A stretch of 64,000 bases of DNA, from the sequence record PZ445437.1, one strand, 5' to 3'. The notes below the pieces were generated by a model. That model searched no databases. It had not been told where the DNA came from and was given only the letters and a program-made list of their open reading frames with translations. Source of the DNA: a phage. The position numbers and the translations under genes were made by a program. Shown here piece by piece: positions 1,391-46,259 of the stretch (positions are counted from its first letter, which is position 1; the number at the start of each line of letters is the position of its first letter).

Positions 1391-1771
1391 TCACTTAGTC
1401 AAATTTTTTACACATGAATTATAAGAATTCACTACATACTCCATCGGAGCATTTTTACCAGTACGCCATTGGTAATTATTAGCCCAATTAGCCCAAATTT
1501 CGGCGCAGTAGTTTTCAATTTTTTCTTCGCGTGTAATTACATCCGAATTACGATATGCTTGAGCAGATTCATCTGGACGAATAGCTTCGTCAAAATTCGC
1601 CTGCATTTGTTCTACTGTTTGCTTTGGAGCTTCTTTATAACACTTGACATTAGGATTATAAAACTTGCTTGAACAGTTTACAATTTTTCCTACATCAGAC
1701 TGATTTACTACCGGTCCTTGAGCCACACAACCAGTAAGACCTAATGCAATAACCAAAATAGCGATTTTCAT
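1391..1771 (-). CDS. Predicted lipoprotein (126 aa)
   Basis: N-terminal signal peptide with lipobox LTGC; multiple Cys; imm.1 position. Confidence 0.6.
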   Translation of the reverse strand: MKIAILVIALGLTGCVAQGPVVNQSDVGKIVNCSSKFYNPNVKCYKEAPKQTVEQMQANFDEAIRPDESAQAYRNSDVITREEKIENYCAEIWANWANNYQWRTGKNAPMEYVVNSYNSCVKNLTK

Positions 1772-1783
1772 AATAATTTCCTC

Positions 1784-2035
1784 TTAAAACTTAACAAATA
1801 ACTTTAAAGCATCTTCAGTTTTAATTCCTTTTCTTACACCCATAACAGAAATTGGCTGTGACTGAAATTTTCCTTTACCATTATAAATTTCTAATCCAGT
1901 AACCATTCCATTTTGTTCTATAATACCGTAAGTGTTACCTTCATTTTCAAATTCTTTAACTTTAAAGAGTTTATTAGCTTTTTCTGCGTTAACAACTTTT
2001 AAATTTTGAATAAAATTAGTTTGAATATTTTTCAT
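1784..2035 (-). CDS. Hypothetical protein (83 aa)
   Basis: ATG preceded by GGAGG RBS and early promoter. Confidence 0.5.
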   Translation of the reverse strand: MKNIQTNFIQNLKVVNAEKANKLFKVKEFENEGNTYGIIEQNGMVTGLEIYNGKGKFQSQPISVMGVRKGIKTEDALKLFVKF

Positions 2036-2063
2036 TTTGTGTTCCTCCGTAGTTGATAGTTGT

Positions 2064-2092
2064 ATAGTACCATGGAAGAACAGTCTTGTAAA
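2064..2092 (-). promoter_or_regulatory. T4 early-class promoter (-35 TTTACA, 17-nt spacer, -10 TACTAT)
   Basis: Minus-strand GTTTACA..17 nt..TACTAT; one of a dispersed family of near-identical elements. Confidence 0.5.
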
Positions 2093-2180
2093 CAGTTTTG
2101 TGAAATTTTTTTAGGGAATTCTAAAGGTCCAGAATCATCTGTTTTTCATAAGTATAGATTTATATTACTTGTATGAAAAA

Positions 2181-2196
2181 GGGACCCGGAGGTCCC
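2181..2196 (-). terminator. Intrinsic terminator after gene 43
   Basis: GGGACC-UCCG-GGUCCC hairpin followed by U-run on minus strand, 14 nt after gene 43 stop. Confidence 0.6.
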
Positions 2197-2209
2197 TAGA
2201 TTTATTCTA

Positions 2210-4980: not shown

Positions 4981-5234
4981 TTTGCTTTAAATTTCTATTG
5001 TACGACGCGATATAACGGACTTGCCATCTGTATTTGTGGTTTTGATAATCGCATGAAATGCGCGTTGGCGTGGGTAAACTAATCGTTGGAATTCTTTTTG
5101 GAATTCTATTTGTTTATCTTCCGGGAGGTCAAAAACCAGTTGGGTAGAAGACAGACCATATGTTTGTTTTTAGATTTTCGAATATTAGAAAAGCTTCGGT
5201 AAACTGAATCTCTGATTGTGTCATATAATTTACC

Positions 5235-7129: not shown

Positions 7130-7163
7130 AATTTCCTCATTCAAGTTTTAGTGTAAATTATAA

Positions 7164-7177
7164 AGGGCCGAAGCCCT
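7164..7177 (-). terminator. Intrinsic terminator-like hairpin after gene 45
   Basis: AGGGC-UUCG-GCCCU hairpin 3 nt after gene 45 stop. Confidence 0.45.
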
Positions 7178-7180
7178 CTA

Positions 7181-7867
7181 TTAAAAATCGTGGGTAGAAT
7201 CAGCTTCAAGAGCTACTACATAATTCGCATGTTCACCTTCAAATTTAGCAGCGCCTTGTTTACCTTTTGCCCAGAGCAGAAGTTTATAATTTCCTGGTTG
7301 CATTTTCATATTTGCCATATTGATAATGAAATTAAATGTGTTTTCACCATCATAATCACCAAGAGTCAAAGAATATTTAACACGGGTCAGAGCAGAATCT
7401 TCTACTTTATTAAAACCGTTAATTACGATTTTACCTTCTTTTACTGTGATAGCAATTGTATCAATTTGCAGACCACGAGATACACGCAACAGTTGTTGAA
7501 GGTCTTCAGCTTTAATTTCAGTAACAACAGATGCTACCGGGAATGGAATTGGTTTATTAGGAGCAACTACTGTGCTCGGATCGGCTGCTGGCCAAAAAAT
7601 TGTTGAGCGGGCATCAGCAATTTTAATATTTCCATCTTCTGACTGGGAAATTTCTGCATCATCATTAACTAGAGACAGAATGCCGAGAAAACCGTTCAAA
7701 TCGTAAATTGCTACATCAAAATCAATAACGTCAGAAATATTTGCTTCCGCGTAAGTTGTACCATTAACTGCGCGAGTCATAATAAATTGACCGGATTTAA
7801 GCATAATGCCAGAGTTAATAGTAGCGAAATTTTTAAGCAGAGCAGTAGTATCTTTAGACAGTTTCAT
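7181..7867 (-). CDS. 45: Sliding clamp
   Basis: 228 aa, T4 gp45 length and position. Confidence 0.93.
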   Translation of the reverse strand: MKLSKDTTALLKNFATINSGIMLKSGQFIMTRAVNGTTYAEANISDVIDFDVAIYDLNGFLGILSLVNDDAEISQSEDGNIKIADARSTIFWPAADPSTVVAPNKPIPFPVASVVTEIKAEDLQQLLRVSRGLQIDTIAITVKEGKIVINGFNKVEDSALTRVKYSLTLGDYDGENTFNFIINMANMKMQPGNYKLLLWAKGKQGAAKFEGEHANYVVALEADSTHDF

Positions 7868-10695: not shown

Positions 10696-11711
10696 TGTGT
10701 TGCCTCTACATATAGCTGGTTTGCATATTGAATAAGTGCTTCACGGTCAGAATCAGTGATGTCTGGAATTGCATTAATGTATTCTTCCATCAACGTCTGA
10801 AGAGATTGAACTTCAACTTCTTCACTGTCATCTGACTCGACAGAGTTATCAATTTTTGACACAACTCGTAATGAATGCACAACTTTTTCTAGTTCAGATT
10901 CGAACTTCGTTAGATTTTTGTCTACTTCAGTTACTATAACACGTACTGATAGATTTGTAAAATCTTTATAGTCAATTTTTCCTTTAAATGGATAATGAAT
11001 TCTACGATGCCAGGTAGTGTTGTTTGGAATAAATTCCATTCGTTCTGTTTCTGTATCAAACATCCAGAACCCACGAGGGTCATTCTCGTCACCTGCAGTT
11101 AGTGTCCATGGTGTCCCAATATATCTGACGTTAGCAGCCTCAGAGATAGTATGGAAGTGACCAGACCACACTTCTTTATAAGTCTTAAGGAAATCAGGTT
11201 CAAGACCATGAGATTTCATTCCTTTATAAAAATAAAATCCGTTCAGTTCCCAGTGACCAACGCAAAAAGAAGCAGATGAAGTTTTGATGTGTTCAAGAAT
11301 TTCACCAGTATTTTCTTCACACATCCAAGGAATTAAATCAATTAAACATCCGTCAAAATCTACTGTAGTAGGCTTATCATATACTTTAACATTAGGATAT
11401 TTAGCCAAAAGCTCAGTAGAGGCATTTGGATGCATTACATTTTTATAGTGGAGATCGTGATTTCCTACAATAGTGTGTAATGTAATTCCAGCATCATCAA
11501 GCGTTTGAACTATTTCACGGGCAAACTCCATAGTTTTATGTGTGATCGCTTTTCTCACATCAAAAATATCACCATATTGAATCCAGGTAGTAATTCCATT
11601 TTTCTTAGAATATTCTATTGCTTGTTTAATTCCATCAATTTGAATACCGCGAATCCACTCATCATCAGCTTTAACGCCTAAATGCCAATCACCCAAGTTT
11701 AGTATTTTCAT
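10692..11711 (-). CDS. 47: Recombination endonuclease subunit, Mre11/SbcD-like phosphoesterase
   Basis: 339 aa (T4 gp47 length); calcineurin-like motifs GDWH, GNHD. Confidence 0.93.
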   Translation of the reverse strand: MKILNLGDWHLGVKADDEWIRGIQIDGIKQAIEYSKKNGITTWIQYGDIFDVRKAITHKTMEFAREIVQTLDDAGITLHTIVGNHDLHYKNVMHPNASTELLAKYPNVKVYDKPTTVDFDGCLIDLIPWMCEENTGEILEHIKTSSASFCVGHWELNGFYFYKGMKSHGLEPDFLKTYKEVWSGHFHTISEAANVRYIGTPWTLTAGDENDPRGFWMFDTETERMEFIPNNTTWHRRIHYPFKGKIDYKDFTNLSVRVIVTEVDKNLTKFESELEKVVHSLRVVSKIDNSVESDDSEEVEVQSLQTLMEEYINAIPDITDSDREALIQYANQLYVEATQ

Positions 11712-12312
11712 GGTGTCTTTTCCATCCTAATTTAGCTGCTTTTGAAACTAGTTCTTTAATTTTTCCTTTTGTCCATTCAGGACCAGGAGGTTCATGACAT
11801 AACATTTGCTTAACTCCGTTATTATACCATTTTTTACCTTTATTATGTGATGAAGCTTTAAATTTATTTGACCTTCCTTTTACATAACCTTCTGGAATAT
11901 AAGGCAAAAAGGCAGATTTTCCTGTTAATGGATCATGTGAATGTATATTTCCTTTACAATTATGAGAACCATATAATGGATGATTTTGTCCTTTATTATC
12001 TCTTCCAAATGAACCTTTTGGAGCAGCATATGACATATTAAAGAATAATGGATTTTTAACTGCATCATGCAATCGTTGATAATATAACTCGCATTTAATA
12101 GCTTCTTCACGCGTATCAAATTCAGCTAAAATGCATGAATCAAATAAGTGAGGATTATCTGAAAGCTCTTTATTATAAATTTTCTTATACTTTTTAGATA
12201 AAACTGAACCATGATATCCAGCTAAATGCCTATCTAAAGACGTAGATCCAATATAAAAAGGAGGAAGTTTATCTCCACTATATATTGTTAAATAAGTTAT
12301 ATATTTTTTCAT
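11689..12312 (-). mobile_element. Freestanding GIY-YIG (Seg-type) homing endonuclease gene, 207 aa
   Basis: N-terminal YITYL..(x10)..FYIGS GIY-YIG motif; NUMOD-like GxNHPLYG repeat; 3' end overlaps gene 47 start by 23 nt. Confidence 0.65.
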
Positions 12313-15185: not shown

Positions 15186-15263
15186 TTTCACCTCTTAGCT
15201 CAATTCATAGATCTATTATATCATAATATTTGAAGATCTATCTTAAAGCATAGAGGATATCAG

Positions 15264-15533
15264 TTATCTAAGTAAACAGTATGCTTGGAATACTTTTTCC
15301 ATCATCTTTTTAAATTCATGAATATCTATATAATGACTAGTTAAATCAGCATGATATAAAAAGTCTAAAAACTTTTCATGTGTACTAACATATTCACTTT
15401 CATTTAATTCAGAAACATGGCTTTCCCAATATCCAACACCAGTTTTATTTGGGAAAAATGAAATTTTCATGTATTGGTCAACATAGAAAATGCCATAATT
15501 TTCAATAGTAATAGAAATATTAATAAATTTCAT
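15264..15533 (-). CDS. Hypothetical protein (89 aa)
   Basis: ORF in 55.x position. Confidence 0.45.
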   Translation of the reverse strand: MKFINISITIENYGIFYVDQYMKISFFPNKTGVGYWESHVSELNESEYVSTHEKFLDFLYHADLTSHYIDIHEFKKMMEKVFQAYCLLR

Positions 15534-18033: not shown

Positions 18034-18504
18034 TTAATCATGTGTCCACACCCCATCGGTATTTGACCAAAGTCGCTGATTATCTGATCCTCGCCACAGC
18101 TTTTTAGTCGGAAGATTTTTCTCATACTTCCCATCAATAATAACATCAACATATTTAAGCATTTCTAGTTGTTTAATATCTTCAAACTTATATCCTGTCC
18201 ACAACCAAATGCTTTTATTGGGATAAAGATTTTTAATAGTTTGAACCACAGAGTGAATCACGTCTCTGTTATCAGGATAAAGAGGGTCACCTCCGGTTAT
18301 AGTCAATCCTTCTATATAATCATTATTCAAACATTCAATTAATTGTTCTAGTGTTTCACCAGTGAATGGAACACCATTTCTAGCATTCCATGTTGATTTA
18401 TTATAACACCCTTCGCATTTATGCAAACAACCTGTAACGAAAAGAACTGTCCTGCATCCAGGACCATTAACAAAGCAGCACGGGTATATTCTGTCATAAT
18501 TCAT
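18034..18504 (-). CDS. nrdG: Anaerobic ribonucleotide reductase activating protein (radical SAM)
   Basis: 156 aa (T4 NrdG length); CxxxCxxC cluster motif. Confidence 0.9.
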   Translation of the reverse strand: MNYDRIYPCCFVNGPGCRTVLFVTGCLHKCEGCYNKSTWNARNGVPFTGETLEQLIECLNNDYIEGLTITGGDPLYPDNRDVIHSVVQTIKNLYPNKSIWLWTGYKFEDIKQLEMLKYVDVIIDGKYEKNLPTKKLWRGSDNQRLWSNTDGVWTHD

Positions 18505-19333
18505 TTATATATTTCCAATTATAGCCTTCAACACTTTTACGTTCGCCATTTAAACATTTTAAAATATTTCCTTTGCTAGAAATATTAAAATATTTTGCTG
18601 CGTCTGGTATATAATTAAATGTTTTTAAAAGAACACCATCTTTATATGCGCCAAATAAATTAAGAGTATATTTTTCTCGAAGACGCTGATGTTTCCTTTT
18701 CATAACCTCAGGATTTGCATACGCCAACTTCAATGAATTTCTGTGTTTTTCTTTTACTTCAGGTTTTTGCATTGCTAACTTAGTTAGCCTGGAAATTTTA
18801 TTTCTAACTTCGTCAGTTTTCATTGCATTTGACAAATTTAATAAAGTTTTATTTCTAACTTCAGGTTTTTGCATTGCTAGCTTAGTTAGTTCTCTATGTC
18901 TTTTTCTAAAATCGTCATCCTTCCATATATTTTTCGATAATTTTGACATAGAGCGGTGAAATAATTCCTTTTCACTGGAATACAATTTAAAAATTTCATC
19001 CAATTCATCCGCATTAAATCTATCGGTATTCGAGTTTATCATTCTATGAAAGGCATAACACATTTTACTATTGCTTGTTTTAGCTAAATAGTAATGAGCT
19101 AACGCATGGTCATAATATGACAAATTAACAATATTCCATTTATCTGTTTTATATTCAGGAAATATAGATTTGGGAAGCACGTGATGTGCTTCCGTTTTTC
19201 CTTTTATTTTAGGATTATTATAATTTTTTGTTATCAAATCAACATATGACAATAGTAAATCATTATTTTCTTCAAATATTAAAGATAATTTATCATTCAC
19301 AAAATCGCAAGGATAAAATCTATCATAATTCAT
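18494..19333 (-). mobile_element. Freestanding HNH homing endonuclease gene (279 aa, Mob-like)
   Basis: HNH motif EAHHVLPKS..N..YDHALAHYY; tandem NUMOD-like repeats (TKLAMQKPEV x2); ATG overlaps nrdD stop; first 13 codons resemble nrdG. Confidence 0.8.
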
Positions 19334-21147
19334 TGGTGTTTAACCCTATGCATGATTTCTTTATTTTTACCGAGATTAAATCCGCGTTCGTTCGGATTTC
19401 CCAAATAACCACATGTTCTTCTTATTGTGTTCATCTTTTTAGGATCAGTTTCTCCACAAATAGAACAAACAAATCCGTTTTCAGTAGGAGTCATTTCATG
19501 GGTACTTCCACATGTAAAACATTTATCTACTGGCATATTAACACCAAAATAATCTAAATGTTGTGCAGCATAATCCCATACGGCCTCAAGACCCTTTAAG
19601 TTATTTTTCATATCAGGAAGTTCAACATAAGAAATGTGACCACCTGTCGCAATGAAATGATATGGCGCTTCACGAGAAATCTTTTCAAACGGAGTAATAT
19701 TTTCTTCTACTGAAACGTGGAAACTGTTAGTGTACCAGCCTTTATCGGTAACATCTTTTACACTTCCATATTTTTCTGTATCAAGTTTACAGAAGCGATA
19801 ACAAAGGTTTTCAGCAGGAGTAGAATACAAACTAAAAGCAAACCCAGTTCTTTCAGTCCACTGTTTAAGACGAGCATTCATTTTAGTTAAAATTTCTCGT
19901 CCAATATCACGACCTACAAGAATATTCAATTCGTGAATACCAATGTATCCTAGAGACACTGAACTTCTGCCATTTTTAAATAACTCAATTATATCGTCAT
20001 CAGGTTTAAGACGAACCCCGAATGCACCTTCTTGGTAAAGAATAGGAGCAACAGTTGCTTTAACTCCTTTTAAGGAACTAATTCTACACATCAAAGCTTC
20101 AAAACACAAATCCATTCGCTCATTGAACAATTCGATAAATTTCTGTTCATTGAACTGTGTTCCAATATAAGAATCTAATGCGATACGAGGAAGATTCAGT
20201 GTTACAACACCAAGATTATTACGTCCATCAAGAATTTCATTACCAGTCGAATCTTTCCATACGCTCAAGAAACTACGGCAACCCATCGGAGAAACAGGAA
20301 CAGATGAACCAGTGATAGCTTTATTGTTCTTAGCTGAAATAATATCAGGATACATCCTTTTGCTTGCGCACTCTAGAGCAAGCTGTTTAATATCATAGTT
20401 CGGATCGTCTTTATAAAGATTAACACCTTCTTCAACAAACATAACAAGCTTAGGGAAAATAGGAGTTATCCCATCACGACCAAGACCTTTAATACGATTT
20501 TTCAGAATTGCTTTCTGAATCATTCGTTCAGTCCAGTCAGTTCCCGTACCAAATGTAATTGTTACAAAAGGCGTTTGTCCGTTTGAACTAAAGAGAGTAT
20601 TTACTTCATATTCATAAGCTTGGAATGCATCGTATACATCTTTTTCTGTTTTAGATTGAGCATAATTCAGTGCATCGGCGATTTGCCATTTTTCTGCATC
20701 CTCAATATGTTTTGCATAGGTGCGTTTAACATAAGGAGAAAGTACTTTATCTACATTAGCAAAAGTCGTTCCGCCGTATTGATGGGAAGCAACCTGTGCA
20801 GTAATTTGTGCCATAATTGCAGTAGCAACTCCAATTGATTTAGGAGTTTCAATCTGCGCATTACCAAGCTTAAATCCGTTCTCAAGCATTCCTTTTAAAT
20901 CTACTAAACAGCAATTAGTAAAAGGCAATGATATACTGTAATCTAAATCATGAAAATGAATTAATCCAACATTATGGGCATTTACAATATGACTTGGAAG
21001 AATACGACAAGCGATATGTTTAGAAACAATACCGGCCATTAAATCTCTTTTTGTTGGAAAGACGCGAGAATCTTTGTTGGCGTTTTCTGTATTTAATTCT
21101 TTATCTTTATTTGAAATAAAATTTAAAACATCTTTTTCTAAAGACAT
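19330..21147 (-). CDS. nrdD: Anaerobic ribonucleoside-triphosphate reductase (glycyl radical enzyme), uninterrupted
   Basis: 605-aa continuous ORF (T4 NrdD spliced length); C-terminal glycyl radical region and Cys-rich zinc site. Confidence 0.95.
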   Translation of the reverse strand: MSLEKDVLNFISNKDKELNTENANKDSRVFPTKRDLMAGIVSKHIACRILPSHIVNAHNVGLIHFHDLDYSISLPFTNCCLVDLKGMLENGFKLGNAQIETPKSIGVATAIMAQITAQVASHQYGGTTFANVDKVLSPYVKRTYAKHIEDAEKWQIADALNYAQSKTEKDVYDAFQAYEYEVNTLFSSNGQTPFVTITFGTGTDWTERMIQKAILKNRIKGLGRDGITPIFPKLVMFVEEGVNLYKDDPNYDIKQLALECASKRMYPDIISAKNNKAITGSSVPVSPMGCRSFLSVWKDSTGNEILDGRNNLGVVTLNLPRIALDSYIGTQFNEQKFIELFNERMDLCFEALMCRISSLKGVKATVAPILYQEGAFGVRLKPDDDIIELFKNGRSSVSLGYIGIHELNILVGRDIGREILTKMNARLKQWTERTGFAFSLYSTPAENLCYRFCKLDTEKYGSVKDVTDKGWYTNSFHVSVEENITPFEKISREAPYHFIATGGHISYVELPDMKNNLKGLEAVWDYAAQHLDYFGVNMPVDKCFTCGSTHEMTPTENGFVCSICGETDPKKMNTIRRTCGYLGNPNERGFNLGKNKEIMHRVKHQ

Positions 21148-25202: not shown

Positions 25203-25257
25203 ATTCTTCTCACTTGGTTAATGGTTTATACTCCGAGCCATCCTTGGTATAAAGCGG

Positions 25258-25785
25258 TTATGCGAGTACCGTCTTTAACCGTTCTTCAAACTTCCGAAGA
25301 GTATTCTGGCGTTCAGCTCTTTGCTTTTTGTAAGTTTCAATACGCTCTGAAATGAGAGTGTATCGTTCATTTACTGATTCTTTCATAAAATCAGGAATTT
25401 CACGAGAAGCTTTAATCTCATCAAATTTATCAATAACAGCTTGCTCTTCAGCAATTAAGTTATCATACATCAAAATATCTTTCTTGATGAACTCAATATC
25501 TTCTTGAGTTACACGAGATAATTTAGATGCTTTATCCTTTTTGTACTGTTCGTTAGTATCACGAGACCAGTGTAATGTACGATTTTTATTCGTATTCTTG
25601 TAAATTTCTACAATACCAATCTCATCGATAATAACGATCCAATTCCAACGAGATTTGTAAATTTGTCCTCCGTCAACCGTGATTTCACCTCCGATTGAGA
25701 TGTCATTAAAGAACTTGCTTTGTGCTTCTGATTTAAATTTACCATCGTTGTAATTTACCAGGTTGAAAATATCTTTAGCGTTCAT
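25258..25785 (-). CDS. Hypothetical protein (175 aa)
   Basis: ORF with GGAGG RBS and early promoter. Confidence 0.5.
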   Translation of the reverse strand: MNAKDIFNLVNYNDGKFKSEAQSKFFNDISIGGEITVDGGQIYKSRWNWIVIIDEIGIVEIYKNTNKNRTLHWSRDTNEQYKKDKASKLSRVTQEDIEFIKKDILMYDNLIAEEQAVIDKFDEIKASREIPDFMKESVNERYTLISERIETYKKQRAERQNTLRKFEERLKTVLA

Positions 25786-25813
25786 TTTGTGTTCCTCCGT
25801 AGTTGATAGTTGT

Positions 25814-25842
25814 ATAGTACCACAAAGGAACAGTCTTGTAAA
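25814..25842 (-). promoter_or_regulatory. T4 early-class promoter
   Basis: Minus strand GTTTACA..17 nt..TACTAT; block 25781-25822 is identical to 2031-2072. Confidence 0.5.
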
Positions 25843-25845
25843 CCA

Positions 25846-26249: not shown

Positions 26250-27218
26250 TTATTTCAGAAGAGTAACCTCAGCAATTTCTTCCCAACCATTTTTGTCGGT
26301 CATAATAAAGTCAGCAAGATAAAGAGCAGTACGCAGTGAAACATTGCGTAAACGATTAACATTGACTTTCATCCATGATAATGCTTTATAAGTTTCTTCA
26401 TCAGAAAGACCGCGCTTTTGCATCATATCAGTCGAAAGAATAACATCTTCAACCCTGACCATAATTTCTTCATTAGTGTGAACACCCAAATCCAAATAAA
26501 CTGAGCGGGACACTAATGCTTGTAAATGTGGAGCAAGTTTAGTACCACGGTCTAATTCGCGGTCAATGTCAACGTTTGTGATAAAAACAATCGTTCCTTT
26601 AAATTCAAACTCACGCTCAATGCCTTTTTCTTCTAAGTAAGAAGATGCAGTGCTCCAGCAGACTTTACGGGTCTCTCCAGTGTCCAGAGCAGCTTTCAGA
26701 AGATTAAGAATGTCCATATCAGAGAAAACATCCACATCATCAATCAAAAGGACAGAATTCTCTTCACGATTATTCCAAAGCTGTTCATAAAGACCGATAC
26801 CAGAGATTTTACCGTTAATGCTTTTATATTCAATGTATCCAATATCATTTGCTTTATTTAAAGCTTTATCTAAAGAATACGTTTTACCAATACCCGCCGC
26901 ACCAGAGATAATTAATGAACGAATATTTCCATTAATAATACCATTCGTCATCATTCCCATAACATTAAATCTTTTATTAATGCGGGTTTTCATATCTTCA
27001 TATGATTCTTTAACTTCTTCAACTTTTACACCATCATATGAAATGTCTGATTTATAAACCCAAACACCGCGACGTTTACCGTCAATTTCAACAAAAACTT
27101 TACCATCTCCTTGTGCATCTACCGGAGCATTATCTGGGAACCATTCGCCTAAGAGCTCAAAAGTTCCAGAGATTTCTTTACCGAAGTAGATACCCTTATT
27201 GATAGTTACAGTTTTCAT
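26250..27218 (-). CDS. AAA/P-loop ATPase (322 aa)
   Basis: Walker A GAAGIGKT, Walker B LLIDDVD. Confidence 0.6.
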   Translation of the reverse strand: MKTVTINKGIYFGKEISGTFELLGEWFPDNAPVDAQGDGKVFVEIDGKRRGVWVYKSDISYDGVKVEEVKESYEDMKTRINKRFNVMGMMTNGIINGNIRSLIISGAAGIGKTYSLDKALNKANDIGYIEYKSINGKISGIGLYEQLWNNREENSVLLIDDVDVFSDMDILNLLKAALDTGETRKVCWSTASSYLEEKGIEREFEFKGTIVFITNVDIDRELDRGTKLAPHLQALVSRSVYLDLGVHTNEEIMVRVEDVILSTDMMQKRGLSDEETYKALSWMKVNVNRLRNVSLRTALYLADFIMTDKNGWEEIAEVTLLK

Positions 27219-27275
27219 TTTATTCTCCTTTGATTTGATAGGACTACTATAACATAGTCCTATCAGTTTGTATAC

Positions 27276-27476
27276 TTATTTTGACATTTCTTCGATGTCA
27301 CGACGATACCCGTCACGAACTTCACGAAGAGCTTCAAGGCCACACATAGGCTCGATACCTGTAATGTGAACTTGATTAATCTGATACTCTACATCTTCTA
27401 ACTGAGCGAAAACATAACGACGTTCAGCTGCACAACCAGATTTAGCTTTACCGAAACGTTTATTCAAAGTAGTCAT
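27276..27476 (-). CDS. Hypothetical protein (66 aa)
   Basis: ORF downstream of early promoter. Confidence 0.4.
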   Translation of the reverse strand: MTTLNKRFGKAKSGCAAERRYVFAQLEDVEYQINQVHITGIEPMCGLEALREVRDGYRRDIEEMSK

Positions 27477-27514
27477 TTTGTATCTCCAATTTACTCATTT
27501 GTTTTGATAGGTCT

Positions 27515-27543
27515 ATAGTATCAACAACTACAGACCATGTAAA
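27515..27543 (-). promoter_or_regulatory. T4 early-class promoter
   Basis: Minus strand GTTTACA..17 nt..TACTAT. Confidence 0.45.
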
Positions 27544-27574
27544 CCGTTTTGTGAAAAATTTTTGAAATAAAAAA

Positions 27575-27592
27575 GGGAGCCCGAAGGCTCCC
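27575..27592 (-). terminator. Intrinsic terminator (GGGAGCC-UUCG-GGCUCCC)
   Basis: Strong hairpin plus U6 run 3 nt after the stop of 27595..28608. Confidence 0.6.
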
Positions 27593-27594
27593 TA

Positions 27595-29069: not shown

Positions 29070-29360
29070 TTATCCTTTCATTGAAGGCGTAACAGTTGTT
29101 AAATACTTAATCATAGCTTCAGCTTCTGATTTTGATAATGAAATTTCTCCATTGTTTTGACGAATAGAAATAAAATCCGGATGACGGTCACCACCAGCTT
29201 TTAAAACACACATATAAGTATCAACTTCATCACACATATTATAACGTTTCTTAAGAAGTTCTACAAGTTCTTCACTAGTAACTTCATCCATGTCGACGAA
29301 AAAATCACCATTAATGATGACGTAGATATTTCCTTCTTGATTGAGTGCTTCAATTTTCAT
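29070..29360 (-). CDS. Hypothetical protein (96 aa)
   Basis: ATG at 29360 with GAGGAG RBS, downstream of promoter; track ORF start 29405 lies upstream of the promoter -10. Confidence 0.45.
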
Positions 29361-29388
29361 GATGTTCTCCTCTTTATCTGATAGTTGT

Positions 29389-29417
29389 ATAGTACCACAG
29401 CTCAAACGGAAAGTAAA
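29389..29417 (-). promoter_or_regulatory. T4 early-class promoter
   Basis: Minus strand TTTACT..17 nt..TACTAT. Confidence 0.45.
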
Positions 29418-29434
29418 CCGGTAAAATGAAAAAA

Positions 29435-29450
29435 GTCTCCCGAAGGAGAC
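29435..29450 (-). terminator. Intrinsic terminator (GUCUCC-UUCG-GGAGAC)
   Basis: Hairpin plus U-run after the stop of 29456..29842. Confidence 0.55.
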
Positions 29451-29455
29451 TAATG

Positions 29456-31353: not shown

Positions 31354-31523
31354 ATATTAATTTCCAGAAGTTTTAAAATAATTCGCTTTTGCTTAAATAT
31401 TTCCATAGTTAAATGATCAGTATCTTTTTGACCAATTCCAATGGCAAAACCTTTATTAGCAGCGAGTTCAATTAAATTATCAAGTTCACGTAACACTTCG
31501 TACTGTAACTCAGAACTATTCAT
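31350..31523 (-). CDS. Hypothetical protein (57 aa)
   Basis: Hand-translated MNSSELQYEVLRELDNLIEL...; ATGA/TGA overlaps with both neighbours. Confidence 0.4.
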   Translation of the reverse strand: MNSSELQYEVLRELDNLIELAANKGFAIGIGQKDTDHLTMEIFKQKRIILKLLEINI

Positions 31524-31732
31524 TTCGGTTTACCTTCTTTAACGAAATCTGGATAAGGATAAAATCCCGAATAAAATCCTTCACCTTTATGATTGACGCA
31601 TCCTTTATTAGAACAATAGCACCAATAATCGAAATCACAAGCCATTTCATCGTTGCATAAAGCAAAAACAACCGGCCACTTACACTTTTCACAATGGGCA
31701 TTTTTAAGAATACTAGTTTGGCTCATAACCAT
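31520..31732 (-). CDS. Cys-rich small protein (70 aa)
   Basis: 10 Cys in 70 aa (CEKCKW...CNDEMACDFDYWCYCSNKGC), likely zinc-binding. Confidence 0.45.
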   Translation of the reverse strand: MVMSQTSILKNAHCEKCKWPVVFALCNDEMACDFDYWCYCSNKGCVNHKGEGFYSGFYPYPDFVKEGKPK

Positions 31733-40375: not shown

Positions 40376-40639
40376 TTATTTCATATTATTGAAATATTCT
40401 TCTGCGATTTCGTCGTTATCATGGTAAACTTTAGAAGACAGTTTAACATAACTTTCAGCAGTGAACATGTTAATCACAACCTTTACAGTATACCACTGAC
40501 CATCTTCATTACCCATTACTGCGTAAGTTTCAAACATCGGATGATCAGGACCGATAACTTTAATATCATTCACTGTACGACCAAAATCTTCTGAAACACA
40601 TTTCATAAAGAAGTTGAACAGTTCGCCGTAATTATCCAT
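40376..40639 (-). CDS. Hypothetical protein (87 aa)
   Basis: ATG at 40639 with GGAG RBS; track start 40702 (TTG) lies inside the promoter. Confidence 0.4.
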   Translation of the reverse strand: MDNYGELFNFFMKCVSEDFGRTVNDIKVIGPDHPMFETYAVMGNEDGQWYTVKVVINMFTAESYVKLSSKVYHDNDEIAEEYFNNMK

Positions 40640-40682
40640 TTCATTCTCCAAGTTGTTTTCTGTATCAGTAGTTGATAGTTGT

Positions 40683-40711
40683 ATAGTACCATGGAAGGAC
40701 AAGGATGTAAA
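40683..40711 (-). promoter_or_regulatory. T4 early-class promoter
   Basis: Minus strand TTTACA..17 nt..TACTAT. Confidence 0.45.
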
Positions 40712-40849
40712 CCGTTTTGTGAAAAAATTTTTAAAAAGTTTTGGGGAATTCTAGGGCAGGGAGGGGAAATCAAAGGATAGGATAATATATTATAAAGGGT
40801 AGAAACTAAATGATGTCTAGAGAGGCCTGGAAAGGCCTAGATACCAAAA

Positions 40850-40873
40850 AGCCCCAACCTTTCGGCTAGGGCT
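40850..40873 (-). terminator. Intrinsic terminator (GNRA tetraloop), copy B
   Basis: Minus strand AGCCCUAGCC-GAAA-GGUUGGGGCU + U4, 7 nt after the IP-like gene stop; preceded by a second hairpin GGCCU..AGGCC at 40824-40837. Confidence 0.6.
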
Positions 40874-40880
40874 AAGAATG

Positions 40881-41354
40881 TTATTTGATTTGTTTAGCAG
40901 ACCAAATGCGGTCTTTAATAATTTTTTGGATGTCTTCAACATACTCAAGAGAGTGAGCATGTGGGTTATCTTTGAAACTATAAGCACGAGCTAGCTTTTG
41001 GCCTTCAGTTTTGATTACTAAAAGCTCTTTAAGGATAGCTTCATATTTGGAGATAATTCCTTTAACGATATTTTTCTCTTGCGTGACTTTAGGATCTGCT
41101 TTAGGAGCAGGTTTACCTGAAGCCTTTGCAAAAGCAGCTCCAGTAGCAACTAAACTTTTCCAAGCCATACTAACTGCATTCCCTGTAAATCCTTCGGCTT
41201 TCATATCACGAGCAAATTGGAATCGTGATTCATCGGAAGCATCTTTATAGGAATATTTACCCGCGGCAATGGCTGCTTTTGCGACAGCTTGAATTTCGGT
41301 GCTAGATGCTTCATTTAACACCGCTTCATTTAAAAATTGAGCATATGATTTCAT
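40881..41354 (-). CDS. Internal-protein-like protein with capsid-targeting leader (157 aa)
   Basis: N-term MKSYAQFLNEA follows the IP leader pattern M-K-[ST]-Y-x-[EQ]-F-[IL]-x-E-A; Ala/Lys-rich; own late promoter and flanking terminators. Confidence 0.55.
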   Translation of the reverse strand: MKSYAQFLNEAVLNEASSTEIQAVAKAAIAAGKYSYKDASDESRFQFARDMKAEGFTGNAVSMAWKSLVATGAAFAKASGKPAPKADPKVTQEKNIVKGIISKYEAILKELLVIKTEGQKLARAYSFKDNPHAHSLEYVEDIQKIIKDRIWSAKQIK

Positions 41355-41390: not shown

Positions 41391-41398
41391 TATTTATA
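41391..41398 (-). promoter_or_regulatory. Late promoter (TATAAATA)
   Basis: Minus strand TATAAATA about 35 nt upstream of AGGAAA RBS and ATG at 41354. Confidence 0.55.
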
Positions 41399-41404
41399 CT
41401 AAAA

Positions 41405-41428
41405 AGCCCCAACCTTTCGGCTGGGGCT
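41405..41428 (-). terminator. Intrinsic terminator (GNRA tetraloop), copy A
   Basis: Minus strand AGCCCCAGCC-GAAA-GGUUGGGGCU + U5; near-identical to copy B. Confidence 0.6.
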
Positions 41429-41430
41429 AA

Positions 41431-41739
41431 GCCTTGCGGCAACCTTGTCGGGGTTCCACCTGCTAAGGCAAGTGTTTGTACGAAACGCCGGGATTCGAAC
41501 CCGGTTATCAAGCAGTTGACGCTACTCAATATTTTTAAAAGGCCATATCTCGACCATATCCGAACGTTCCGTCAAAAACGCTACTCGGCTTACGGCAAAG
41601 ATATTTCCTCGAATCGATAATTCGGTGCGCCGTTTCTGCTGTGATATAAGGGGACATTAACAAAACATAAAGATTTATTAATGCCAGTCCTTAAACAGGG
41701 AACATCAGTCCGACGACTTACCGGTAGCGACCCGGTTTC
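41431..41739 (-). ncRNA. Candidate stable small-RNA region (boundaries unknown)
   Basis: ~310 nt without convincing ORF between the ORF downstream of tRNA-Arg and a strong terminator; contains tRNA-like T-arm CCGGG-TTCGAAT-CCCGG (41488-41504); T4 has RNA C/D near tRNA-Arg. Confidence 0.3.
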
Positions 41740-42108: not shown

Positions 42109-42184
42109 TGGTCGAGGCAGTAGGGATCGAACCTACGACCTAGGACTTAGAAGGTCCTTGCTCTTCCTTCTGAGCTATGCCCCG
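42109..42184 (-). tRNA. tRNA-Arg (anticodon UCU)
   Basis: Hand-folded cloverleaf, 76 nt, CCA encoded, anticodon loop CUUCUAA. Confidence 0.85.
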
Positions 42185-42188
42185 TAAT

Positions 42189-42264
42189 TGGGGTGACCGA
42201 TGGGAGTCGAACCCATGACTACGAGAATCACAATCTCGAGTTCTACCAACTGAACTACGGCCAC
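42189..42264 (-). tRNA. tRNA-His (anticodon GUG)
   Basis: Hand-folded cloverleaf, 76 nt, CCA encoded, anticodon loop UUGUGAU. Confidence 0.8.
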
Positions 42265-42378
42265 ATTAATACCTACTCCAACAATCAAGATGTCTTCACA
42301 CGAAATTAAGAGAAGAGTGATCAGTTCAACCCCTATAATCGCGTCAAGTAGATATTAATGTGACAGTTGTCACAAATT

Positions 42379-42453
42379 TGGCGGACGTGATAGGATTCGA
42401 ACCTATAACCAATCGCTTAACAGGCGATCGCTCTGCCATTGAGCTACACATCC
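42379..42453 (-). tRNA. tRNA-Asn (anticodon GUU)
   Basis: Hand-folded cloverleaf, 75 nt, CCA encoded, anticodon loop CUGUUAA. Confidence 0.8.
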
Positions 42454-42457
42454 AAAT

Positions 42458-42544
42458 TGGTGGGGAGTGATGGAGTCGAACCACCCGAGTCGCAATGACA
42501 ATGGATTTACAGTCCACACCGCTACCTCTACGGGATAACTCCCC
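42458..42544 (-). tRNA. tRNA-Tyr (anticodon GUA), class II
   Basis: 87 nt with long variable arm, anticodon loop CUGUAAA, CCA encoded. Confidence 0.8.
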
Positions 42545-42553
42545 AAATTAATT

Positions 42554-42628
42554 TGGTGGCCCTGGGTGGAATTGAACCACCATCTGGCGATTATGAGTCG
42601 CTTGCTTGAACCTTCCAGCTACAGGGCC
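42554..42628 (-). tRNA. tRNA with CAU anticodon (Ile2/lysidine type or Met)
   Basis: 75 nt cloverleaf, anticodon loop CUCAUAA; T4 tRNA-Ile occupies this position after Thr. Confidence 0.8.
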
Positions 42629-42629
42629 T

Positions 42630-42705
42630 TGGTGCTGATTGACGGAATCGAACCGCCGACCTTCTCATTACAAGTGAGTTGCTCTACCTACTGAGCTAAA
42701 TCAGC
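42630..42705 (-). tRNA. tRNA-Thr (anticodon UGU)
   Basis: 76 nt cloverleaf, anticodon loop CUUGUAA. Confidence 0.85.
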
Positions 42706-42710
42706 AAAAC

Positions 42711-42800
42711 TGGCGGAGGCGATAGGATTTGAACCTATGAGTCGCCGGAGCGACTGCCGGTTTTCAAGACCGGTGCATTAAACCACTCTGCCACGCCTCC
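42711..42800 (-). tRNA. tRNA-Ser (anticodon UGA), class II
   Basis: 90 nt with long variable arm, anticodon loop CUUGAAA. Confidence 0.85.
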
Positions 42801-42806
42801 AAATAT

Positions 42807-43457
42807 TTATATATTGTTAATTTGATTTAGAATTCTTTTTGCTTGAGTATGACTTACGCCAATATGCTTAGCATATTTAGATAATTCACCACGCTTAGAA
42901 AAATCATATAATTTAGAAATTTCTATTCTTCTTTTTCTTTCATCCACAGAAACTTTTGCTTCGTTTGCTTTTGCTATTTTACGTTTAGCTTCTTGAGAAT
43001 GAGTTTTACCAGCAAAGCCATTCTTCATTAATCCATTTGAAGACCATCCTTTTAATTTTCCGTTAGAATGTGCCTTTTTAACACCCAATGAAATTAATTC
43101 GCGTTGCTGGTCTGTCATAGGATAATTATTTATATGATCCCATCCACCTTCACCGCCAAGTTTTAAATTATACACATCTGGTCTATTTAAAAACTCTTCT
43201 GTAACAATATTTTTCTCGGCTTCAAGCATAGATTCTTTATCATCAAAATACTCTAATATTTCTTTAGAAAAATTTTCTATACCATACTTATCTTGGGCTC
43301 TTTTTAATAATTTACCAGAACCCATATATCCATCATCTAAATTTTCGGTAGAATGCACACCAATATAAATTTTATTATTAATTTTATTTGTTATTTTATA
43401 AAGATAAAAATGCATATCAGTCCCTAATAAAGAACTGAGCGTCTCACGACGAGTCAT
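42807..43457 (-). mobile_element. segB: GIY-YIG homing endonuclease SegB-like, inside tRNA cluster
   Basis: FYLYKITNKINNKIYIGVH...DDGYMGSG GIY-YIG motif; located between tRNA-Gly and tRNA-Ser as segB is in T4; probable true start at internal Met (43415). Confidence 0.8.
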
Positions 43458-43461
43458 AAAT

Positions 43462-43535
<74 letters not shown>

Positions 43536-43540
43536 AAATT

Positions 43541-43627
43541 TGGTGCGAGAAGTGGGACTCGAACCCACAAGGAAATCATTCCGCAGCATTTTAAGTGCTG
43601 TGCCTTTACCAATTTGACCATTCTCGC
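43541..43627 (-). tRNA. tRNA-Leu (anticodon UAA), class II
   Basis: 87 nt, anticodon loop CUUAAAA, long variable arm. Confidence 0.85.
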
Positions 43628-43628
43628 G

Positions 43629-43701
43629 CTGGGAATAAAGGACTCGAACCTTTGCATCCTGGAATCAAAATCCAGTGCCTTACCAACTTGGCTAATTCCC
43701 A
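43629..43701 (-). tRNA. tRNA-Gln (anticodon UUG)
   Basis: 73 nt, U1-A72 pair, anticodon loop UUUUGAU, CCA not encoded; 1 nt from tRNA-Leu. Confidence 0.85.
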
Positions 43702-43787: not shown

Positions 43788-44303
43788 TTAAAGCAAATTA
43801 AACATTTTAACAGTCGGCAAAACAATTTCTTTTTCTATATAAGAGTATTTAACACTCTCAACTACGCGCAGAAAATCATAATCATAATATTCAGAAGCAC
43901 TGCCTAAAATATTAATAAGTCCTTCAAGCACTTTATTACCATTCACAAAGAATAAGTCAAATACACGTTCTTCATCTTCTTCAGATTTATTACCAAGGTC
44001 AACTTCTATATCAAAGACCTTTTTAATGAATTCTGGATAAAGCTGGTCTGAGAACAGTCCTTCAACCAAGTATTCATAGATAAAAAGCGATTGCTCGCTG
44101 AACAAGCCATTACCACAATAACGTTCAGCTTTAGTACTAGAATGTCTACTTTTAAACTTCTTTAAAAGATATTGAAATTGTAAGATTTCATGCTCTTCTA
44201 CGCCAAACAGTGTTTTAGTTTTATAGTTGTCACCATCATTTTCCCAGGTAGTGACATCAATTACGTAACCCTGTGGAATTGTAGTACCTAAACAAATATT
44301 CAT
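43788..44303 (-). CDS. Hypothetical protein (171 aa)
   Basis: ORF upstream of tRNA cluster. Confidence 0.45.
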   Translation of the reverse strand: MNICLGTTIPQGYVIDVTTWENDGDNYKTKTLFGVEEHEILQFQYLLKKFKSRHSSTKAERYCGNGLFSEQSLFIYEYLVEGLFSDQLYPEFIKKVFDIEVDLGNKSEEDEERVFDLFFVNGNKVLEGLINILGSASEYYDYDFLRVVESVKYSYIEKEIVLPTVKMFNLL

Positions 44304-44593
44304 TTGCTCACCATATTAATGTAAGTATATTCAATACATTCAAGACCCAAAGGATTCTTGAAAATATCATATTCAAGAGGACCTTTTTCCGTTTCAATAA
44401 AGAAATCAAAATTTACTGTATTAAATTTACGGTCTTCCTTCACTAATTTAACCTGAGAAGATGAACGGTCAATGTAAACCTTTTCAACTTCAAAACATGT
44501 TAAAATGCCATAATCATCAATCAAGGCTTTAGCTGCTTCTTGATCATATTTATATCCATTTTCAATGGATGATACTTTAGCATAAAGAATCAT
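44300..44593 (-). CDS. Hypothetical protein (97 aa)
   Basis: ORF, ATGA-coupled. Confidence 0.45.
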   Translation of the reverse strand: MILYAKVSSIENGYKYDQEAAKALIDDYGILTCFEVEKVYIDRSSSQVKLVKEDRKFNTVNFDFFIETEKGPLEYDIFKNPLGLECIEYTYINMVSK

Positions 44594-45006: not shown

Positions 45007-45192
45007 TTATTCACCTTTAGAAATTTTATCCATAACGATAGCGATTAAACCAATTAAAAATGCTACTACAAGCGAAAACACATTTTCTGCTGTAGTTAAT
45101 AATCCGCATATAAATCCAACAAACATTGAAAAACTAAAAGCGGAAGCAGAAATTGCAATAGCAACATTTCGAATTAATTCACAACGTTTCAT
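45007..45192 (-). CDS. Small membrane protein (61 aa)
   Basis: Two hydrophobic helices. Confidence 0.45.
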   Translation of the reverse strand: MKRCELIRNVAIAISASAFSFSMFVGFICGLLTTAENVFSLVVAFLIGLIAIVMDKISKGE

Positions 45193-45220
45193 TTTATTCT
45201 CCTCAGTAGTAGATAGGGTA

Positions 45221-45249
45221 ATAGTATCACTACCCTATCTAAAAGTAAA
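45221..45249 (-). promoter_or_regulatory. T4 early-class promoter, -10 inside a 9-bp inverted repeat
   Basis: Minus strand GTTTAC..17 nt..TACTAT; GATAGGGTA..TACCCTATC palindrome spans the -10. Confidence 0.45.
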
Positions 45250-45250
45250 C

Positions 45251-45484
45251 TTATTTTTTACGAAAAATTGATTTATATTTATCAGCCCATTTCTCGATGA
45301 CTTTTGCCGGGCCATAGATAACAAAATAATCACCAAACTCTTCACCACCGAGTTGACCGAAATTATCTAATGCATCACGAAGAACTCCATGAGGCATTTC
45401 GCCCATTTTATCTTTCTTACCAATGTAAATAAACTCAACTTTTACATCAGCAGCTTCAGCAATAAATTCTTGATACGTTTTCAT
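45251..45484 (-). CDS. Internal protein IPI-like (77 aa) with capsid-targeting leader
   Basis: ATG at 45484 with GGAG RBS gives MKTYQEFIAEA... leader identical to the T4 IP leader; ipI position upstream of 57B. Confidence 0.6.
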   Translation of the reverse strand: MKTYQEFIAEAADVKVEFIYIGKKDKMGEMPHGVLRDALDNFGQLGGEEFGDYFVIYGPAKVIEKWADKYKSIFRKK

Positions 45485-45520
45485 TTTATTCTCCAATTTC
45501 ACATTTGTTTTGATAGGGTA

Positions 45521-45549
45521 ATAGTATCACAACTAAAACCCTATGTAAA
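45521..45549 (-). promoter_or_regulatory. T4 early-class promoter (duplicate module of 45221-45249)
   Basis: Minus strand GTTTACA..17 nt..TACTAT; shares GATAGGGTAATAGTATCAC and the RBS block with the module 300 bp away. Confidence 0.45.
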
Positions 45550-45562
45550 CAACTTTGTGAAA

Positions 45563-46259
<697 letters not shown>

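Follow-up and report, generated by a model that had tools for sequence, protein, structure and literature searches.

The repeated blocks of promoter, ribosome-binding site and start codon that are dispersed through the early region of a T4-like phage are very probably copies of the T-even early expression cassette, exchanged by homologous recombination. The window analysed here, a stretch of 64,000 nucleotides from sequence record PZ445437.1 numbered from its first letter, comes from a Tequatrovirus of the T2/RB27 kind (96-99% identical to RB27, T2, AndreasVesalius and others), is collinear with T4 from about 25 kb (about 25.5) to 92 kb, and carries its early genes on the minus strand. An earlier note on this DNA had proposed that such portable modules could be homologous-recombination substrates that shuffle early genes, and this proposal is supported by a series of alleles and by block mosaics at three loci. 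When the gene content of relatives was compared at the repeats, differences bounded by the elements were found at 43|imm.1, nrdC.11|nrdC.10 and ipI, so that relatives do differ in the way whose absence had been set beforehand as grounds for rejecting the proposal.

The 42-nt block TTCATTTTGTGTTCCTCCGTAGTTGATAGTTGTATAGTACCA occurs exactly twice in the window, at 2031-2072 and 25781-25822, and has no third site there at three or fewer mismatches. On the minus strand it reads TGGTACTAT(-10)ACAACTATCAACTAC-GGAGG-AACACAAA-ATG-AA, opening with TGG-TACTAT. The two copies belong to the following modules:

2031..2093, minus strand: copy 1, with the -35 hexamer GTTTAC at 2093-2088, TGG and the -10 hexamer TACTAT (2069-2064), leader ACAACTATCAACTAC at 2063-2049, Shine-Dalgarno sequence (SD) GGAGG at 2048-2044 and ATG at 2035-2033.
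25781..25843, minus strand: copy 2, the promoter, leader, SD and start of nrdC.8, with the -35 at 25843-25838, the -10 at 25819-25814, GGAGG at 25798-25794 and ATG at 25785-25783; the nrdC.8 gene occupies 25258-25785.

Both have the layout GTTTACA-N17-TACTAT with TGG directly before the -10, followed by GGAGG-N8-ATG, and over the 63 nt that run from the -35 hexamer through the second codon (2031-2093 versus 25781-25843) they agree at 59. In the -35 region GTTTACAAGACTGTTC is identical and is followed by a 6-nt patch that holds 4 mismatches, while the flanks upstream of the 63-nt similarity are unrelated. The exact repeat, the near-identity of the -35 region and the unrelatedness of the genes behind the block had all been claimed in the earlier note, and all three hold: none of 100 dinucleotide-preserving shuffles gave a chance 42-mer match (0 expected), and the protein of the open reading frame behind copy 1 (ORF-A) matches NrdC.8 by BLASTP only at E = 9.3. 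Since ORF-A and NrdC.8 lack similarity, the repeat is not a segmental duplication, and that candidate, together with paralogy of the downstream genes, was rejected.

Promoter activity at 2093 and 25843 would be expected from the sequence and from annotation in relatives. In phage Lutter the equivalent of the copy 1 site carries the annotation 'promoter', and the -10 and -35 signals of nrdC.8, the copy 2 site, are annotated in T4 record U76612. T4 annotation thus covers the nrdC.8 and nrdC.10 promoters in this older record, while promoter features are absent from the T4 genome records NC_000866 and AF158101. The -35 of copy 2 abuts the stop codon of nrdC.9, and the terminator scan found no intrinsic terminator upstream of it; the UP-like A/T-rich tract is AAAAAAATTTCACAAAACT in copy 1 and a weaker AAAAAATTGTGAAAGAAGTTTCTTTTAGTG, formed by the end of the nrdC.9 coding sequence, in copy 2. 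Among the rows sampled from 674 matching records, none showed a rearrangement at the copy 2 promoter itself. In the window, Ozark and 310Ecol104PP the two copies are identical over the 42 nt, and in T2 and RB51 they differ by about 2 bases. The copies are direct repeats 23.75 kb apart that flank genes 43, 62, 44, 45, 46, 47 and 55. Judging from the gene map, an intragenomic crossover between them would delete 23.75 kb including those seven genes and would be lethal, so the pair is better read as the footprint of one or more past events than as a productive pair.

At least 12 T4-type early modules, each with promoter, leader, SD and ATG, lie on the minus strand of the window. They were collected with the family-specific pattern GTTTAC(A/T)-N17-TA(C/T)(T/A)AT (more broadly stated, GTTTAC-N17/18-TAnnnT), because a generic sigma-70 scan, which returned 105, 93 and 86 sites where about 89, 80 and 83 were expected, is uninformative in an AT-rich genome. 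Across 514 records the module family has about 2.5 matching places per genome. The -35 positions, and two further members that have sequence in common with the 42-nt pair, are as follows:

2093, 16995, 25843, 27544, 29418, 33807, 36508, 39986, 40375, 40712, 45250 and 45550, minus strand: -35 positions of the 12 modules.
40639..40735, minus strand: e.8 promoter module, with 30 nt (CTTCCATGGTACTATACAACTATCAACTAC) in common with copy 1 and 24 nt with copy 2.
29360..29451, minus strand: mobD.5 terminator (29451-29434) and early promoter, with TGGTACTATACAACTATCA common to copies 1 and 2.

Most of the 12 have TGn before the -10 and an upstream TTTCACAAA(A/G) tract, and their leaders of 25-40 nt end in a GGAG-type SD followed by ATG. 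A CTATC motif stands 3' of the -10 in 9 of the 12, and copy 1 and the 27544, 29418 and 40712 elements are each preceded by an intrinsic terminator. Among the 66 pairs that the 12 modules form, the longest exact match is that between copies 1 and 2, against a median longest shared word of 9 nt; the mobD.5 promoter has 19 nt in common with copy 1. T4 early promoters have been described as an 'UP/-35/TGn/-10' class (Nolan et al., 2006, PMC1524935; Hinton, 2010, PMC2988021), and the modules agree with it in GTTTAC at -36 to -31, in TGn, -10 and A-rich upstream tract, and in conserved positions beyond the sigma-70 consensus. They differ in that the identity seen here runs on through leader, SD and start codon, which lie outside the definition of a promoter. 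A known structured RNA was rejected as an explanation of the modules, as an Rfam scan of the whole window at gathering thresholds found 10 tRNAs only.

The clearest case of exchange is the interval between gene 43 and imm.1, where copy 1 stands:

2094..2197, minus strand: terminator after gene 43 (stem-loop 2197-2180, then TTTTT) and the UP-like tract AAAAAAATTTCACAAAACT abutting the -35 of copy 1.
1784..2035, minus strand: cargo ORF-A, 83 aa, phrog_18567, function unassigned, driven by copy 1.
1391..1783, minus strand: imm.1, with its own SD and start, GAGGAAATTATT-ATG.

A terminator is annotated at the equivalent place in Lutter, and a Pfam search with the cargo proteins of the window returned no matches. 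At least three alleles of this interval exist among 516 related Tequatrovirus records, as classified by span and coverage in a BLAST search of phages (IMG/VR held 5 imm.1 loci, too few for such a census). Allele A, with ORF-A between the promoter and imm.1, is found in only 30 of the 516, including T2, RB27, RB51 and Ozark. Allele B, which carries an unrelated signal-peptide ORF of 78-85 aa in the same slot, accounts for 39 of 60 sampled rows, AR1, Lutter and PhiZZ23 among them. T4, RB3, RB14, RB32 and others have no ORF there. The arrangement in which the T4 promoter acts directly on imm.1, which is the classical reference layout, is thus one of several alleles at this locus.

The junctions between these alleles fall within the elements. 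Homology to T4 stops at window position 1771, at the start of imm.1, and resumes at 2046, inside the 42-mer; the gap measures 274 nt in the window versus 20 nt in T4, and the extra sequence consists of an nrdC.8-type leader and ORF-A. In all alleles the left junction is the end of the common -10/leader block, GGTACTATACAACTATCAACTA(C), and in alleles A and B the right junction is the SD and start codon of imm.1, GAGGAAATTATT-ATG. The T4 allele and allele B are related by an indel whose ends lie within an 8-nt repeat, ATGAAAAT, found at both start codons. A homologue of ORF-A that is 54% identical occurs in the Dhakavirus IME08 in another hyperplastic region (after rI.-1), and there too it sits directly behind a terminator and early promoter of its own.

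The leader and ORF-A are found behind three different promoter heads across relatives. In T2 the spacer is of nrdC.8 type and the entire stretch from -35 to ATG resembles nrdC.8, in the window and RB51 the spacer is of the T4 P(imm.1) type, and in Ozark and 310Ecol104PP it is of the e.8 type. Lutter joins an nrdC.8-type spacer to the allele-B leader at the imm.1 locus, and in T4 the nrdC.10 promoter and the promoter at the imm.1 locus have the segment from -10 to ATG in common. Judged by their sequences, the promoters are mosaics of each other. The 42-nt identity itself may have originated when ORF-A arrived together with an nrdC.8-type promoter and leader, a configuration still intact in T2, and later crossovers in the common -10/leader block would then have placed ORF-A behind different promoter heads.

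It is also possible, if rather unlikely, that ORF-A was inserted with some other leader and that ectopic gene conversion from the nrdC.8 promoter afterwards equalised the two copies, which would amount to concerted evolution of dispersed promoters and not to co-transfer of a module with its gene. In RB51 one and the same leader position reads G in both copies (AACCGAAAATG in copy 1, AACAGAAAATG in copy 2), where the window, Ozark, 310Ecol104PP and T4 have AACACAAAATG, and this is a weak hint of such ectopic conversion; the movement of spacer types between loci, as with the nrdC.8-type spacer at the imm.1 locus of Lutter, would also fit. However, the shared change is confined to one lineage, and in T2 copy 2 has the G variant but copy 1 does not, so that the variant is polymorphic at copy 2 and identity of the copies is not universal. 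The complete nrdC.8-type module that precedes ORF-A in T2, from -35 to ATG, is moreover most simply explained by arrival as one unit.

A second allele series is found between nrdC.11 and nrdC.10:

27229..27593, minus strand: terminator (27593-27574), early promoter (-35 at 27544) and half-element.

The promoter at 27544, which together with the terminator corresponds to 'early promoter 54.4' of T4 record U76612, drives a 66-aa ORF (27276-27476) that is absent from T4, and nrdC.10 is preceded by GGAGAATAAAATG and by a degenerate half-element at 27235-27266 that consists of a stem-loop and a -10-like sequence. Three alleles were found, whose junctions coincide with the -35 hexamer and with GGAGAATAAAATG, the SD. 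In T4 the promoter stands directly before nrdC.10; in the window and 310Ecol104PP the 66-aa ORF is inserted and the degenerate half-element is left behind; and in T2 a 162-aa ORF lies between two complete terminator-promoter units.

The third locus is ipI, where two elements enclose a gene for an internal protein (IP):

45476..45575, minus strand: upstream member of the second pair, with UP-like tract, promoter, stem-loop around the -10, SD GGAGAATAAAA and the ATG of the IP gene.
45251..45484, minus strand: IP cassette of 77 aa with the leader MKTYQEFIAEA, which replaces T4 ipI.
45186..45250, minus strand: downstream member of the second pair, with early promoter, a 14-bp stem-loop enclosing the -10, SD GGAGAATAAAA and the ATG of a trna.4-like gene.
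45007..45192, minus strand: gene for a trna.4-like membrane protein of 61 aa, behind the downstream member.

The second pair of repeats, which the earlier note had placed near 45181-45249 and 45471-45549 in front of a 61-aa membrane protein gene and an IPI-like gene, was likewise confirmed. The two members have in common GATAGGGTAATAGTATCAC, at 45212-45230 and 45512-45530, and a 16-nt block of RBS and start, TTTCATTTTATTCTCC, at 45187 and 45479, and the SD/start sequence in this pair is again GGAGAATAAAATG. The 77-aa protein matches phrog_8111, 'internal virion protein', at E = 6e-51. Among the sampled records the IP configuration of the window was seen in one only, RB18. The number of IP cassettes at ipI varies from none in bov9_1 to one in T4 and the window, two in ASO78A and three in RB32, and every cassette is bounded by the same element of about 75 nt, made up of promoter, stem-loop, SD and ATG; the GenBank record of RB32 describes its IP genes as 'flanked by 43 bp direct repeat'. 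A pair as closely spaced as this one, on either side of an IP gene, is of the sort by which a cassette is excised or exchanged, and the layout of bov9_1, with one element and no IP gene, is what would be expected of the chromosomal product of mini-circle excision between neighbouring elements.

Analogous promoter/inverted-repeat elements of about 70 bp flank the IP genes of T-even phages, according to the accounts of Repoila et al. (1994) given in PMC2839356 and PMC4122927. As far as those accounts describe it, the second pair is this very element, flanking an IP gene whose product has the conserved 11-aa leader, at a polymorphic locus (ipI) that differs among phages in how many IP genes it contains and in which ones; nothing substantive sets the window apart from them, and it has its IP allele in common with RB18.

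Part of the sequence that the modules have in common reflects function. The -35, TGn and -10 are promoter consensus, and GGAGAATAAAA, which occurs three times in the window and always at an SD (in both members of the second pair and before nrdC.10), equals the published consensus of a strong RegB/S1 site, GGAGRAYARAA. Functional convergence could in principle account for all of the similarity, if strong early promoters and RegB-sensitive ribosome-binding sites must each fit one consensus and no exchange between loci has taken place; the T4 consensus elements (-35, TGn, -10 and UP-like tract), the RegB sites and the CTATC motif after the -10 would agree with this. Convergence alone is nonetheless highly improbable, as the 42-nt identity spans leader positions that are free to differ in other members of a family whose median shared word is 9 nt, one leader stands behind three spacers and one spacer before two leaders, and alternative cargo ORFs start exactly at block boundaries.

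Exchange of cassettes by homologous recombination would work as follows. The cassette consists of an A/T-rich UP-like tract, a -35 of GTTTAC(A/T), a 17-nt spacer ending in TGn, a -10 of TA(C/T)(T/A)AT, a leader of 25-40 nt, a GGAG-type SD and ATG; many cassettes have an intrinsic terminator upstream, and most an inverted repeat that places the -10 in a predicted hairpin loop. From what is known of the family, host sigma-70 RNA polymerase would fire these promoters immediately after infection, the short leader would give strong translation, and the GGAG of the SD would make the mRNA a candidate target of RegB cleavage. The blocks of 20-60 nt that cassettes at different loci have in common serve, as the comparison with relatives shows, as crossover points for phage homologous recombination. 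Because of this, a small accessory ORF can be gained, lost or swapped while its expression signals stay intact.

Breakpoints across the whole collinear region give a more general picture. When the window was set against T4, the 5' zones of genes, which make up 16% of the sequence, contained 25 of the 38 junction edges. Gene starts that bear a promoter are not enriched in breakpoints relative to other starts in this one pairwise comparison (4 of the 25 edges, those in 12 promoter-bearing zones, against 4.8 expected, p = 0.73; a uniform null gives p = 0.027 instead), and since random gene starts give a similar count, a special role of the modules as recombination hot spots is not demonstrated. 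The window also has a deletion of nrdC.4-7 near copy 2, for which an early promoter at the junction was considered and rejected, as the breakpoint shows 10 nt of microhomology, CCAAGGATGG, in a middle-promoter-like sequence. An IP-like insertion is flanked by a 36-nt terminator repeat.

Several of the differences between the window and T4 are indels of homing endonucleases. Co-conversion by such enzymes, with the promoters as bystanders, might be held to explain the differences in gene content in general, given that several differences between the window and T4 are endonuclease genes or an intron (mobB, mobC, I-TevII, mobD, and segB within the rearranged tRNA region), and that a seg-like ORF adjoins nrdC.9 in RB51. 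We regard this as extremely improbable for the loci at issue, because none of the alleles at 43|imm.1, nrdC.11|nrdC.10 or ipI encodes an endonuclease; their cargo proteins have 66-162 aa, and those scanned are PHROGs of unknown function or internal proteins.

The modules also have structure at the RNA level. A significant hairpin with the -10 in its loop is predicted in the read-through RNA of 8 of the 12 modules (z = -2.7 to -4.8). That of copy 1 pairs the spacer with the SD at -13.9 kcal/mol (z = -3.2), that of copy 2 does so over 14 bp at -19.8 kcal/mol (z = -4.5), and those of the second pair have z = -4.2 (the member at 45186-45250) and z = -3.25 (the member at 45476-45575). For copies 1 and 2 and the 33807 module, the SD itself forms the 3' arm and the 5' arm lies upstream of the predicted start site, so that only read-through transcripts could form the predicted SD hairpin. 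Copies 1 and 2 differ at four spacer positions, and at three of these the change is between C and U opposite G, so that pairing would be kept in the predicted structures. Hairpins that sequester the ribosome-binding site are known in the T4 genes e, soc, 49 and I-TevI (Uzan and Miller, 2010, PMC3014915). The predicted ones resemble them in using the SD as 3' arm and in forming only in read-through RNA, and differ in that the T4 genes have late or middle promoters inside early read-through units, whereas here the internal promoter is itself early. It may be, although we consider it doubtful, that the spacer-SD hairpin with the -10 in its loop is selected, such that read-through RNA is silent or processed, the cassette's own promoter alone yields translatable mRNA, and occasional ectopic conversion keeps the copies homologous. 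Were this the case, the cassettes would be self-insulating, which would explain why promoter and ribosome-binding site travel together as a co-adapted unit and why the identity exceeds 40 nt.

The same structures raise the question of active mobility, in which a dedicated structure- or sequence-specific activity would act on the stem-loops to excise and integrate circles as in integrons. Promoter-early stem-loops (PeSLs) were defined in phages RB49 and phi1, where mini-circles were detected whose sequenced junctions lie between the -10 and the SD/ATG, and the authors considered that a helper protein might be involved (Arbiol et al., 2010, PMC2839356). The significant hairpins around the -10 in 8 of the 12 modules would be in keeping with such an activity, yet it is improbable here. 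Some junctions coincide with the -35, others with the end of the leader block, the SD or ATGAAAAT, a spread over several module positions that is predicted by homology-guided crossover and not by cleavage at a single site. Stem sequences are unrelated among modules, no recombinase gene accompanies the cassettes, and T4 recombination is reported to need only short homology of less than 50 bp (Singer, 1982, as cited in PMC2839356).

PeSLs were later extended to the T4/PST pair, with the consensus TTTACW-N17-TAYWAT followed, at the 3' end, by an SD and a start codon (Comeau et al., 2014, PMC4122927), and this consensus fits all 12 modules of the window. The modules agree with PeSLs in the order of A/T-rich tract, early promoter, stem-loop, SD and start codon between small ORFs in hyperplastic regions, in indels and replacements between close relatives that are bounded by the units, and in crossovers between the -10 and the SD/ATG. 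Location at such indels and replacements holds for copy 1, the 27544 element and the second pair, but not for copy 2; a stem-loop is present at copy 1 as both terminator (2197-2180) and hairpin and at copy 2 as the hairpin alone. The PeSLs of RB49 and phi1, by contrast, have near-perfect TTGACA/TATAAT promoters and stems that are G/C-rich terminators, whereas the stems in the window mostly straddle the -10 and lack a U-tract, with separate G/C-rich terminators upstream of some modules only.

Like lambdoid morons and integron cassettes, the cassettes described here appear as self-contained accessory genes with their own expression or recombination signals, inserted between resident genes. Morons differ in GC content and in their origin by illegitimate recombination, and integrons use a dedicated integrase and attC sites; for the cassettes of the window, general homologous recombination at common regulatory sequence would suffice.

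The mechanism by which such elements serve as recombination substrates is already published (Repoila et al., 1994; Arbiol et al., 2010; Comeau et al., 2014), as are the element and the T4/PST case, so that the value of the present analysis lies mainly in annotation and it adds little as discovery. The repeated blocks warrant the label of early promoter cassettes, and the ORFs behind them that of exchangeable cargo. For the family, these loci illustrate how T4-like phages swap small early accessory genes while neighbouring transcription units are left undisturbed, the exchanged genes including injected internal proteins and other likely factors of host takeover or anti-defence.

Among the 12 early-promoter modules, which are named by the position of the -35 element, a CTAT(C) motif is conserved in nine, located downstream from the -10 hexamer at a distance of 4-9 nt, around the expected start site (modules 2093, 25843, 27544, 29418, 33807, 40375, 40712, 45250, and 45550). 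Two other sequences, possible internal promoters, match the sigma-70 consensus (TTTACA-N17-TATAAT) at 11 of 12 positions within coding sequence, and neither is accompanied by a TGn element, a UP-like tract or a nearby SD/ATG:

16550-16521, minus strand, sigma-70 consensus match
23027-22998, minus strand, sigma-70 consensus match

The strong RegB/S1 cleavage consensus, GGAGRAYARAA, has three exact matches in the window, compared with 0.36 expected by chance, and each constitutes the SD of a gene:

27218-27228, minus strand, SD of nrdC.10
45192-45202, minus strand, SD of the trna.4-like gene
45484-45494, minus strand, SD of the internal-protein (IP) gene

The start of the trna.4-like gene also recurs in the Klebsiella T4-like phages KP179, KP1, Roth01, and others, where a 73-nt stretch (45161-45233) that takes in the -10 of its promoter, the leader, the SD, and the gene's first codons is conserved at 93% identity, while its flanks have no match in those phages at megablast level.

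The nrdC.4-nrdC.7 genes, 3.4 kb in T4, are missing from the window, and the deletion junction (25238-25247) holds a 10-nt microhomology, CCAAGGATGG, that is found in both T4 intergenic regions, where it is set in a middle-promoter-like sequence (GCTTTA-N12-TATAAT). No sampled record among 674 matching records contains an unbroken match across this junction. Another five insertions are present in the window but not in T4, with lengths of ~250-600 nt. None is bordered by an early promoter, their edges showing only microhomologies of 6-8 nt, and several of their junctions are located at start/stop codon overlaps:

4987-5234, insertion
11711-12306, insertion
15258-15519, insertion
31354-31722, insertion
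43807-44322, insertion

The tRNA region (42112-43701) is rearranged relative to T4 and contains 10 tRNA genes (Rfam) vs. eight annotated in T4, and T4 mobC is replaced by a segment (18465-19334) carrying several short direct repeats of families D9, D10, and D14 (34-42 nt, 78-88% identical).

Dispersed across 32 kb are three copies of a 26-nt G/C-rich, AAAGGGCCGAAGCCCTTTAT-like stem-loop, which are probably bidirectional terminators:

7156-7181, stem-loop
12467-12492, stem-loop
39291-39316, stem-loop

An intrinsic terminator also forms a 36-nt direct repeat, AAAAAGCCCCAACCTTTCGGCT.GGGGCT, whose copies are 94% identical and spaced 555 bp apart:

40841-40876, terminator repeat
41396-41431, terminator repeat

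These repeats enclose a ~520-bp segment, absent from T4, which carries an IP-like gene; the start of this gene (41323-41354) is similar to the internal-protein leader. Unlike the promoter-bounded cassettes, this segment is flanked by a repeated terminator rather than a repeated promoter.
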